Shown here: piece after piece, positions 1,766 to 6,564 of the stretch
Layout of the letters: each line of letters starts with the position of its first letter
Numbering within the stretch: the first letter of the stretch is position 1
IMG/VR virus record: IMGVR_UViG_2617270976_000014
Location: 1-10,963 of that record
Origin: a virus
Taxonomy: Duplodnaviria; Heunggongvirae; Uroviricota; Caudoviricetes
Direction: 5' to 3' (one strand)
DNA length: 10,963 nt
Made by a program: the position numbers and the translations under genes
The notes under the pieces: model-generated
The model's database searches: none
What the model saw: only the letters and a program-made list of their open reading frames with translations
What the model was told of the DNA's origin: nothing

Positions 1766-1799
1766 TTCAAGATGATCAATAAATATTGATCATCTTGAA
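1766..1799. repeat. Perfect 16-bp inverted repeat (TTCAAGATGATCAATA-AA-TATTGATCATCTTGAA) with two GATC sites, 32 nt after the deaminase stop
   Basis: Read directly from the sequence; the arms are exact reverse complements with a 2-nt spacer. Could be a terminator hairpin or a protein-binding site. Confidence 0.8.
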
Positions 1800-2114: not shown

Positions 2115-3131
2115 CTATCTTAAGTTGCATAAAGGGTTTTTAGTTACCGCATCTTCAAGGTGATCGGGCGAAAAGTGGGCGTAAATCATCGTCATTTTTA
2201 TATCGGCATGGCCCAGAATATCGCGCAGCACCAGTATGTTTCCGCCATTCATCATAAAATGGCTGGCGAATGTATGACGTAGCACGTGAGTGCATTGGCC
2301 CTCTGGCAGCTCGATGCCAGCTCGCTTTACTGCTCGTTCAAAGGCTTTTCTGCACGGGGTGAATAGCTTCCCTCTGTTCTTGGGGAGTTCGTCATACAGA
2401 TCTTGAGATATCGGCACGGTGCGGTTTTTCTTACCCTTCGTCTTGGTATAAGTGATGCGGTATTTAGATAACTGATGGCCCTGCAGGTTTTCAGCTTCAC
2501 TCCAGCGTGCGCCGGTGGCCAGGCATATTTTTGCAATCAAAAGCAGACTGGGGTTTTGAGAATCAGCGCAGGCATCTAGCAGACGTTTAATTTCTTCCGA
2601 GGTCAGGAACGCCAGTTCCCCCTCAGCGATTTTAAATGTTGGCAGCCCGGCGAGAGGATTTGGTGCTGACCAGTGGCCTAGTTTTTTCAATGTGCCGAAA
2701 ACCGATGATAGGTTACGTTGCTCAAGATTCACCGTGCGTGGTTTTACTGGCGACATTAGTGTGCCGTCTTCGTTACGAACGTCACCTTTTAACCGTGCTT
2801 CGCGGTATTTCGTAAAGTCACCGGCTGTCAGTTCTGAGGCGATGGGGTCGCCTAGACCATTACAGATAATTCTAAGTTTCGCCATGAGGCGCTTGGGGTC
2901 TGCGAGTGTCTGACCATACAGGGAATACCAAAGCTCAATTAATTCTGATAGGCGTCGCCGATCATCCTTTTCACCCAACCACGGTTTTTTATTCACTTCT
3001 TCCATTGTGAAGCTTTCAAAAGCAATGGCTTCGCCTTTCGTAGCAAATTGCTTACGCACGCGCTTACCATTGCGTCCATTGGGATAGCACTCACACAACC
3101 ATTTTCCGTTCGGCTGTTTTCTGATGGTCAT
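2115..3131 (-). CDS. int: Tyrosine recombinase, P2/186-family phage integrase (338 aa)
   Basis: N-terminus MTIRKQPNGKW...YPNGRNGKRVRKQF is P2-family-like. C-terminal catalytic residues in context: ATGARWSE (Arg), HVLRHTFAS (His-x-x-Arg), MIYAHF (Tyr). Its start lies 1 nt after the stop of the upstream repressor gene (TGA-T-ATG on the minus strand). Confidence 0.9.
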   Translation of the reverse strand: MTIRKQPNGKWLCECYPNGRNGKRVRKQFATKGEAIAFESFTMEEVNKKPWLGEKDDRRRLSELIELWYSLYGQTLADPKRLMAKLRIICNGLGDPIASELTAGDFTKYREARLKGDVRNEDGTLMSPVKPRTVNLEQRNLSSVFGTLKKLGHWSAPNPLAGLPTFKIAEGELAFLTSEEIKRLLDACADSQNPSLLLIAKICLATGARWSEAENLQGHQLSKYRITYTKTKGKKNRTVPISQDLYDELPKNRGKLFTPCRKAFERAVKRAGIELPEGQCTHVLRHTFASHFMMNGGNILVLRDILGHADIKMTMIYAHFSPDHLEDAVTKNPLCNLR

Positions 3132-5483: not shown

Positions 5484-5710
5484 TGGCTGATGCAATGGAT
5501 CTCGTACAGCAGCGCGTTGAAGAAGAACGCCAGCGCCATATCCGTGCTGCCCGTGCCAAAACACCGGGCGTGTCTCGCGTGCTTTGCATTGAGTGTGAAG
5601 CGCCAATTCCGCCAGCACGCCGCCGTGCCATTCCGGGTGTGCAGCTTTGCATTACCTGCCAGGAAATTGCAGAGCTGAAAGGCAAACATTACAACGTAGG
5701 TGCTGTATGA
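5483..5710 (+). CDS. TraR/DksA-family C4 zinc-finger protein (75 aa)
   Basis: Two CxxC pairs with the spacing of the TraR/DksA finger (CIEC...CITC); RBS AGGAGA; start overlaps the preceding stop. Confidence 0.75.
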   Translation: MADAMDLVQQRVEEERQRHIRAARAKTPGVSRVLCIECEAPIPPARRRAIPGVQLCITCQEIAELKGKHYNVGAV

Positions 5711-6564
5711 GCACCATCCTGAAATGGGCGGGAAATAAAACCGCCATTATGTCCGAACTGAAAAAACACCTTCCTGCTGGCCCGCGACTGGTTGAACCTT
5801 TCGCGGGTTCCTGTGCTGTGATGATGGAGACGGATTACCCCAGCTATCTTGTTGCGGATATTAATCCTGATTTAATCAACCTCTATAAAAAGGTTGCTGC
5901 TGATTGTGAGGCATTTATATCTCGTGCCAGAGCTTTATTTGAGGAAGCAAACAGGGAGGTGGCTTATTACAACATAAGGCAGGAGTTTAATTACTCCACT
6001 GAAATTACTGATTTCATGAAAGCGGTATATTTTCTGTATCTCAATCGTCATGGTTACCGTGGGTTATGTCGCTATAACAAGAGCGGGTATTTCAACATTC
6101 CCTACGGTAATTATAAAAATCCGTATTTCCCTGAAAAAGAAATTCGCGCATTTGCAGAGAAAGCCCAGCGGGCAACGTTTATCTGCGCCAGCTTTGATGA
6201 AACGCTGGCGATGTTGAAGGCGGGGGATGTGGTGTATTGCGATCCGCCGTATGACGGCACGTTTTCCGGTTATCACACTGACGGCTTCACTGAAGATGAC
6301 CAGTATCACCTGGCATCCGTTCTTGAACATCGGTCATCAGAAGGACATCCGGTCATTGTTTCTAACAGTGACACATCCCTGATCCGTTCGCTGTATCGCA
6401 ATTTTACTCACCACTACATCAAGGCAAAACGCAGCATCGGCGTAGCAGCTGGTGAGAGTAAATCTGCAACAGAAATCATCGCTGTTTCTGGGGCGCGCTG
6501 CTGGGTGGGATTTGATCCTTCGCGTGGCGTGGATAGTTCTGCCGTGTACGGAGTGCGTGCATGA
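5707..6564 (+). CDS. dam: DNA N6-adenine methyltransferase, Dam family (285 aa)
   Basis: N-terminal ILKWAGNK, AdoMet-binding EPFAGSCAV and catalytic DPPY (VYCDPPYDG) motifs; start ATG overlaps the upstream stop (ATGA) and its stop overlaps the start of gene A. Confidence 0.85.

Follow-up and report, generated by a model that had tools for sequence, protein, structure and literature searches.

AvcI, the RNA antitoxin of AvcID deaminase systems, is about 170–300 nt long, and avcI and avcD have been treated as one locus with a possible terminator discussed between them (PMC10511110). For E. coli, Rho-dependent transcripts have been found to end just past stable stem-loops that have no U-rich sequence, and these stem-loops protect the transcripts from PNPase and RNase II (Dar & Sorek 2018, PMC6061677). 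Other hairpins situated beyond genes include the intrinsic and bidirectional terminators between convergent genes, the extragenic REP/BIME palindromes, which are dispersed in many copies per genome and can stabilize the upstream mRNA, and the sib/tI retroregulator of phage lambda, in which a hairpin past int governs the RNase III-dependent decay of the int mRNA. The original AvcID work reportedly placed avcI 5′ of avcD. Here we compare with these systems a perfect palindrome that follows an AvcD-type deaminase gene in a prophage. The window, that is, the whole stretch of DNA analyzed, is 10,963 nt long, and the features needed for the comparison are the following.

1–1734, + strand: anti-phage dCTP deaminase gene of the AvcD/dCTPase family, 577 aa (PADLOC, Pfam, RefSeq)
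1735–1765, + strand: 3′ UTR leader of 31 nt from the stop codon to the palindrome (pairwise alignment)
1766–1781, + strand: left arm of the palindrome, with the conserved core CAAGATGATC at 1768–1777 and GATC at 1774–1777
1782–1783, no strand assigned: 2-nt center; the innermost pair opens in the folded strand, giving a 4-nt loop
1784–1799, + strand: right arm of the palindrome, with the conserved core GATCATCTTG at 1788–1797 and GATC at 1788–1791
1928–2104, − strand: pseudogene remnant of a 208-aa gene, N-terminal ~60 codons (tblastn, blastn)
2115–3131, − strand: 186/P2-type prophage integrase gene, int (Pfam Int_N and Phage_integrase; RefSeq annotation)
2153–2165, − strand: int codons for PDHLED, reading CTTCAAGGTGATC on the + strand (direct repeat D1; shuffle test)
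5647–6564, + strand: D12-class (Dam-family) adenine methyltransferase gene of the prophage (Pfam MethyltransfD12, 6.3e-77)

The palindrome is real and lies far beyond chance. Its left arm, TTCAAGATGATCAATA, and right arm, TATTGATCATCTTGAA, are exact reverse complements around a central AA, and its first base is the 32nd nucleotide past the deaminase stop codon TAG (1732–1734), within a spacer of 380 nt (1735–2114) between the deaminase gene and int. The earlier note on this DNA had described the 16-nt arms, the 2-nt center, the distance from the stop codon, the spacer length and the GATC in each arm, all of which agree with the sequence. A repeat search listed the arm pair as inverted repeat I1 and extended it to 21 nt at 90%. 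The note had also considered the palindrome too long to be accidental. This was borne out by 2000 dinucleotide-preserving shuffles of the spacer, in which no perfect arm exceeded 12 nt (gap up to 10); the second-best palindrome of the whole window has 9-nt arms. An 18-nt arm appeared in one of 100 shuffles of the whole window and was assumed to be an A-run/T-run artefact. As single-stranded DNA, the palindrome, whose stem is AU-rich (4 G/C of 16 per arm), folds at −13.6 kcal/mol versus −3.35 ± 1.5 kcal/mol for shuffled sequences (z = −6.7).

The deaminase (PADLOC dCTPase, 2.1e-145; Pfam dCMP_cyt_deam_1) bears the RefSeq label 'anti-phage dCTP deaminase', and its gene is convergent with int. 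Downstream of it are encoded int, CI, Rha/Apl-like, CII, Fil, DUF5347, DUF2732, TraR, the D12/Dam methylase and gpA; the window prophage is a 186-type member of the P2 group. The Dam-family gene to which the earlier note referred is genuine (Pfam MethyltransfD12, 6e-77), with a RefSeq span of 5707–6564 and the label 'DNA adenine methylase'. In all related loci, a 45-nt copy of the ssrA (tmRNA) 3′ end precedes the deaminase ATG by about 190–240 nt, a position beyond the window. This copy gives a partial Rfam tmRNA match (E 4e-10) and matches the annotated ssrA gene in the rows listed, the match being present in 5426 of 5426 genomes. The deaminase gene lies between this attachment-site copy and int and is therefore cargo inside the 186-like prophage, not a neighbor of it, which corrects the note's placement of the gene next to an adjacent prophage. 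The upstream neighbor varies: strain E47 has a P4-like satellite there, and CV839-06 has ypjA. The int–att position is itself variable among related prophages, with other genes filling it in L004, L005, L178–L180 and L183. This location fits the minor 'integrase-att' defense hotspot reported in P2-like phages (PMC13586616).

Several observations were made on the surroundings of this position. The int–att genes of the other prophages (L004 2919–3980, L005 2954–3883, L178 1266–2477, L179 1229–2485, L180 1362–2489 and L183 1565–2788) are diverse and uncharacterized, encode 309–418 aa and lie on the same strand as int; they are candidates for unrecognized defense genes. The ssrA copy that forms the prophage att site occupies L001 11765–11810, upstream of the window start. 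About 90 nt past it, two direct TGCCGCCA repeats, 11 nt apart (L001 11900–11918), are kept in nearly all deaminase-carrying 186-like loci and might serve as arm-type sites for the integrase or belong to the AvcI/promoter region. The P4-like satellite of strain E47 (L001 1830–11576) directly adjoins the prophage att end and has primase-helicase, psu, delta-like and integrase genes, with a SIR2-family gene in its own hotspot; satellite and prophage look like a tandem occupation of the ssrA site. In the Citrobacter and Siccibacter prophages L017 (10879–11126) and L022 (10873–11120), traR is followed directly by gene A and no Dam methylase gene was called between the two, where the E. coli versions have one (window 5647–6564). 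The traR–gene A interval is a second variable position in these prophages.

The palindrome was found in 20 of 5426 E. coli genomes, at one place per genome and always in this prophage, with no further copy across the 5426; the deaminase–spacer–int segment is likewise intact in 20 of the 5426 complete genomes. Eleven IMG/VR contigs have the exact palindrome and all represent the same element. Scans with degenerate patterns yielded 32 stretches from IMG/VR and at least 120 from metagenomes, among which L055, L094 and L163 were the sole members of the element besides the 11 known loci; the remaining matches had no deaminase or int match and were taken as chance. A protein scan of genome contigs added at least one distant locus. 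Citrobacter, Siccibacter and Enterobacter relatives, whose deaminases are 89% identical in protein sequence, have a hairpin at the same place. In a deaminase homologue of the AW1.7 type, about 72% identical as a protein, the gene is followed by unrelated sequence free of inverted repeats; the downstream region of a Photobacterium locus is different too, and loci of the L025 type have no deaminase–int spacer at all. The orthologous loci to which the earlier note had looked for the same palindrome thus divide: the hairpin is kept in the 89% relatives and missing from AW1.7-type loci, and the spacer itself is missing in L025-type loci. Judging from the AW1.7-type loci, the hairpin is dispensable for the deaminase gene family.

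We compared seven variants of the hairpin, from the window, the second E. coli clade, L055, Citrobacter, Siccibacter, a Logan contig and E. hormaechei. The 89% relatives have the form CAAGATGACC-(13 nt)-GGTCATCTTG, placed as far from the stop codon as the window palindrome, and this offset is constant in all seven variants. The cores are retained throughout as a 10-bp CAAGATGAYC/GRTCATCTTG stem, in which a single pair differs, U-A in E. coli and C-G in the others, with both sides altered. This one change abolishes both GATC sites, giving GACC/GGTC in Citrobacter, Siccibacter, E. hormaechei and L023. The inner pairs are lineage-specific, AAUA/UAUU in the window and GGG/CUU (two G-U, one G-C) in the 89% relatives; across variants, two A-U pairs interchange with G-U and one U-A pair with G-C. 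In the second E. coli clade, base 1799 is T and the stem is 15 bp long. L055, found in the degenerate scans, has a 4-nt insertion exactly at the palindrome center (1782–1783), resulting in a 13-bp stem and an 8-nt loop. The interior measures 10, 13 or 14 nt among free-standing variants, and this variability together with the tolerated central insertion is behavior that, on comparison of the sequences, resembles that of a loop.

What the relatives have kept is the pairing and not the sequence. When the seven variants are aligned by structure, 90.9% of the cells are paired, versus 25–47% when the 3′ partners are slid by 1–3 columns; both sides differ in three pairs and one side in two, counts that rest on two or three independent lineages and thus on few evolutionary events. 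In the structure-fitted alignment, the window and clade-2 rows are gapped at three inner pairs (MAFFT set the inner arm of the window out of register, and realignment with a covariance model kept the gaps), and the covariation of the inner pairs therefore rests on L055 versus the 89% clade and on the sequences as read directly. Between the E. coli and the Citrobacter types, the arms are identical at 18 of 20 positions, compared with about 50–60% for the non-coding flanks and 59–68% for third codon positions in the last 300 nt of the gene; a simple binomial estimate puts the probability of this arm conservation by chance at roughly 0.004–0.02. The window hairpin (15–16 bp) folds as RNA at −19.9 kcal/mol on the + strand and −19.5 kcal/mol on the minus strand. 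On the + strand, all seven variants fold at −20 to −24 kcal/mol; on the minus strand, the four 89%-clade variants reach only −14 to −16 kcal/mol because of their G-U pairs, which favor the + strand RNA, i.e., the deaminase strand. The variable spacing, the insertion accommodated at the center, the persistence of pairing and the G-U pairs all point to a stem-loop that is read on the deaminase strand.

The leader between stop codon and palindrome (1735–1765) can be partly aligned with the 89% relatives, with gaps, at 53–61% identity and with ACTC..CTTCCT..AGG in common. A second inverted repeat, 1705–1714/1744–1753 (AAAGATGAGT/ACTCATCCTT), straddles the deaminase stop codon and folds at −19.7 kcal/mol on the minus strand. 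It is present in both E. coli clades only and missing from the 89% relatives, and may be another template-switch inverted duplication.

The hairpin was then set against the known classes of element. Like intrinsic and bidirectional terminators, it is a stable stem-loop (−19.9 kcal/mol, 15–16 bp) between convergent genes, here 31 nt past the stop codon; unlike them, it has an AU-rich stem and lacks a U-tract on either strand. No U run starts 0–2 nt after the stem (+ tail AAGUUAAUUGCA, minus tail GCUUACCUCAGG), in agreement with what the earlier note had seen; a terminator scan gave 0 terminator-like sites, and the relatives are without a U run too. A canonical intrinsic terminator was rejected on the missing U-tract and on the lack of a C-rich, rut-like stretch downstream. 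Thus, of the terminator hairpin that the note had proposed, the hairpin is backed by pairing conservation, variable spacing and G-U pairs, and the intrinsic terminator is not. Elsewhere, the deaminase homologues L003/L031 and L024 have short hairpins followed by T-rich sequence, as judged by eye. About 50 nt past the palindrome, an A-run/T-run stretch (1846–1873, AAAAAATGTTTTTGTTTTTTTCATTTTC) gives an A-U hairpin only, below the reach of the terminator scan, and could contribute to termination of the deaminase transcript.

The stem-loops of Rho-dependent transcripts (PMC6061677) come closest: they too are stable, follow shortly after the stop codon, lack a U-rich stretch and occur in E. coli. 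The palindrome differs from them in being unusually long, perfect and AU-rich and in having no rut-like region downstream. A C-rich, G-poor rut region was not found in the 80 nt (C/G 0.77) or 150 nt (C/G 0.75) downstream, where C makes up 12%, and the C/G ratio of the coding region is similar (0.72–0.75). Since the C-rich region is missing, we use the Rho-dependent protective stem-loop as a working analogy only and do not claim membership of that class. The resemblance to REP/BIME lies in the extragenic position past a gene end. Such elements have many dispersed copies per genome, and REP/BIME was rejected for this single-copy palindrome, which occupies one place in each of 20 of 5426 E. coli genomes and has no Rfam match above threshold. 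A known RNA family was rejected as well, as Rfam searches of the window and the wider locus gave sub-threshold matches only (mir-81, 23.4 bits versus a cut-off of 54.5). With AvcI the hairpin shares the character of a non-coding RNA feature tied to an AvcD-type deaminase gene; the antitoxin RNA was rejected since the palindrome is 3′ of the gene and only 34 nt long, and a duplex between it and the upstream region (−27.9 versus a shuffle mean of −31.9) is no better than with shuffled sequences. Lambda sib/tI is likewise a long hairpin beyond the 3′ end of a prophage int, near the att end. Here, the better-conserved fold is on the strand opposite int, att does not lie between int and hairpin in the prophage, and in a sister architecture described below the hairpin is inside the int coding sequence.

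Besides the terminator hairpin, the earlier note had offered a dimeric regulator site or a recombination site, and in view of the GATC in each arm it had suggested that occupancy might be sensitive to methylation. Searches of the 10,963-nt window, including the cI/apl control region, revealed no further half-site at up to 3 mismatches. An operator would hold half-site spacing fixed and base identity above pairing; the interior of 10, 13 or 14 nt and the compensatory C-G/U-A change within the half-site are the reverse of this. A promoter-like match that overlaps the right arm scores no better than chance. The window shows no enrichment of GATC, with 40 sites in its 10,963 nt, and the Dam enzyme of an E. 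coli host would methylate the palindrome sites anyway. With GATC replaced by GACC/GGTC in the 89% relatives, Dam sensitivity is not a conserved property of the palindrome.

An origin of the hairpin is suggested by int itself. The left arm plus one flanking base, CTTCAAGATGATC (1765–1777), recurs inside int at 2153–2165 with 12 of 13 nt identical, and with 13 of 13 in the int of clade 2 and in the int allele of the abutting type; shuffled palindromes reach a 13-nt int match in about 6 of 10,000 trials (p about 6e-4). On sequence comparison, the arms are homologous to the integrase codons for PDHLED and DIKMT. In a third architecture, represented by the ENA contig L025, ETEC TW10598 (L177), JX21CE8 (L181) and a locus with only an int remnant (L026–29), the deaminase stop codon is only about 6–13 nt from the int stop codon. 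The int codons GAT ATC AAG ATG ACC ATG ... CCA GAY CAT CTT GAA GA form an imperfect inverted repeat there, which starts 41–45 nt past the deaminase stop codon and has an interior of 25 nt. This int-embedded hairpin folds at −12 to −19 kcal/mol on the + strand versus −8 to −14 kcal/mol on the int strand, the same strand bias as that of the free-standing hairpin, and a covariance model of the latter matches int 3′ ends in L025 (28.7 bits, E 8e-6) and L026 (23.7 bits). Eight other int alleles encode the same amino acids through ATA AAA ATG ACN and have no such repeat. The palindrome thus seems to be derived from the tail of an int allele of the 186 type.

Among the 13 IMG/VR loci that have the repeat-forming int allele and enough flanking sequence, the deaminase gene abuts int in 11; L183 and L194 combine this type of int with other cargo and no deaminase. 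A strict linkage was rejected on these two loci, and we therefore do not claim that selection for the deaminase has acted on the int codons. From these sequences the link looks strong without being absolute, and it is sufficiently explained if the last ~100 nt of int hitch-hiked with the cargo.

Part of the 380-nt spacer is itself a decayed gene. The remnant at 1928–2104 matches a 208-aa protein at 42% identity over 60 aa (tblastn, E 2e-6) with two in-frame stops, and blastn against the relatives gave 73–77% identity over window 1896/1991–2200. An intact 208-aa gene is present on the minus strand of the hairpin-to-int interval in Citrobacter portucalensis, Siccibacter colletis, Enterobacter hormaechei and Logan contigs. 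Its product has no Pfam match on record in the contig tables and is hydrophobic by eye. In the simplest account of the origin, an abutting deaminase–int junction would have been joined by recombination to another cargo-plus-int module, consisting of the 208-aa gene and its int. The old int tail would then have decayed except for two complementary pieces, which were kept and drawn together as the loop shortened from 25 nt to 13 nt to 2–4 nt and new inner pairs were gained. The free-standing palindrome is probably the leftover of such an int tail.

Descent from int leaves room for a hairpin that does nothing, and this is the serious rival to a functional reading: a functionless relic of the int 3′ end, whose quasi-palindrome of DIKMT and PDHLED codons was perfected and kept symmetric by template-switch errors. 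Intrastrand template switching can yield compensatory-looking changes in DNA palindromes without selection and would mimic the covariation described above. The derivation of the arms from int codons agrees with a relic, as do the decay of the neighboring 208-aa gene, which indicates relaxed constraint in the region, the inverted duplication across the stop codon, which is confined to the E. coli type and suggests local template-switch activity, and the missing hairpin at more distant deaminase loci. Against this, the arms (18 of 20) are far better conserved than flanks and synonymous sites (about 50–68%); the inner pairs of the 89% clade are G-U, which symmetrizing at the DNA level does not favor; and inner pairs were gained and loops shortened independently in each lineage, the fold going from −12 to −19 kcal/mol to −20 to −24 kcal/mol. 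On balance we regard a neutral relic as possible, with some doubt. The same int homology might instead mark or promote exchange of cargo modules at the int–att hotspot, through short int identity or a cruciform. The 13-nt identity to the int 3′ end does flank the decayed 208-aa segment as a direct repeat (1765–1777 and 2153–2165), and cargo at this position is variable in the prophages named above, in keeping with the minor P2 hotspot (PMC13586616). Such a DNA-level junction would explain the origin of the arms and not their retained pairing; there is one copy per element, and the palindrome was not found at the boundaries of other cargos. We know of no recombinase for such a site, and take this minor rival to be a long shot.

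In a different minor rival, the hairpin would act as a barrier or terminator on the opposite strand, or on both, and would stop transcripts of cI–int (and of the 208-aa gene) from running antisense into the deaminase gene. The palindrome lies exactly between the convergent units and the window sequence folds nearly equally on the two strands; however, neither strand has a U-tract, the minus-strand hairpin is 6–8 kcal/mol weaker in the four 89%-clade variants, and the abutting-type hairpin, being inside the int coding sequence, cannot terminate int transcription. This barrier is unlikely. The dimeric regulator site dependent on Dam methylation has in its favor a perfect dyad with one GATC per arm and a Dam-family methylase in the same prophage. 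This reading is very improbable and largely refuted by the comparative data: the 89% relatives keep the pairing with GACC/GGTC in place of GATC, half-site spacing differs by 3–4 bp among variants, the window has no other half-site at 3 mismatches, the promoter-like match over the right arm is at chance level, and no Dam gene was called in the L017 and L022 prophages.

The explanation that we prefer, at a probability of about one half, is that the palindrome is a 3′-UTR stem-loop of the deaminase mRNA, without a U-tract, i.e., a transcript-end structure with int-codon ancestry. We infer that it works as an RNA structure, on the transcript of the deaminase gene. By analogy with the Rho-dependent stem-loops, our best guess at its function is that it shields the 3′ end of this mRNA: standing between the deaminase gene and the convergent int and decayed 208-aa genes, the 15–16-bp stem-loop of about −20 kcal/mol would block 3′→5′ exonucleases and so give the deaminase mRNA a defined, protected 3′ end, perhaps pausing RNA polymerase as well, and would keep the two convergent transcription units apart. 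As a transcript-end structure, the palindrome is an ordinary kind of element. In a bolder version, which we consider rather unlikely, the hairpin would be an integral and selected part of the mobile AvcD-type module, needed to adjust how much toxin mRNA there is, or how long it lasts, against the labile AvcI antitoxin, and would be kept in two forms, as synonymous sites of the last int codons in the abutting architecture or as a free-standing exapted remnant. If this were true, the coding sequence of one gene would have been recruited, and later kept as non-coding DNA, as the 3′ regulatory element of its convergent neighbor.

For the annotation of this locus, the results mean that the deaminase gene is cargo of the int–att hotspot, that the apparent spacer holds a dead gene, and that the readings of the twin-GATC palindrome as a methylation switch or an operator are unsupported. 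The practical value is modest. The balance between toxin and antitoxin RNA is central to the firing of AvcD-type systems (PMC10511110), and if the hairpin does determine where the deaminase mRNA ends or how stable it is, cloning or comparison of such a system should include it. That a non-coding hairpin apparently descends from int codons is a small, clean case of usable debris left by module swapping in prophage defense hotspots.
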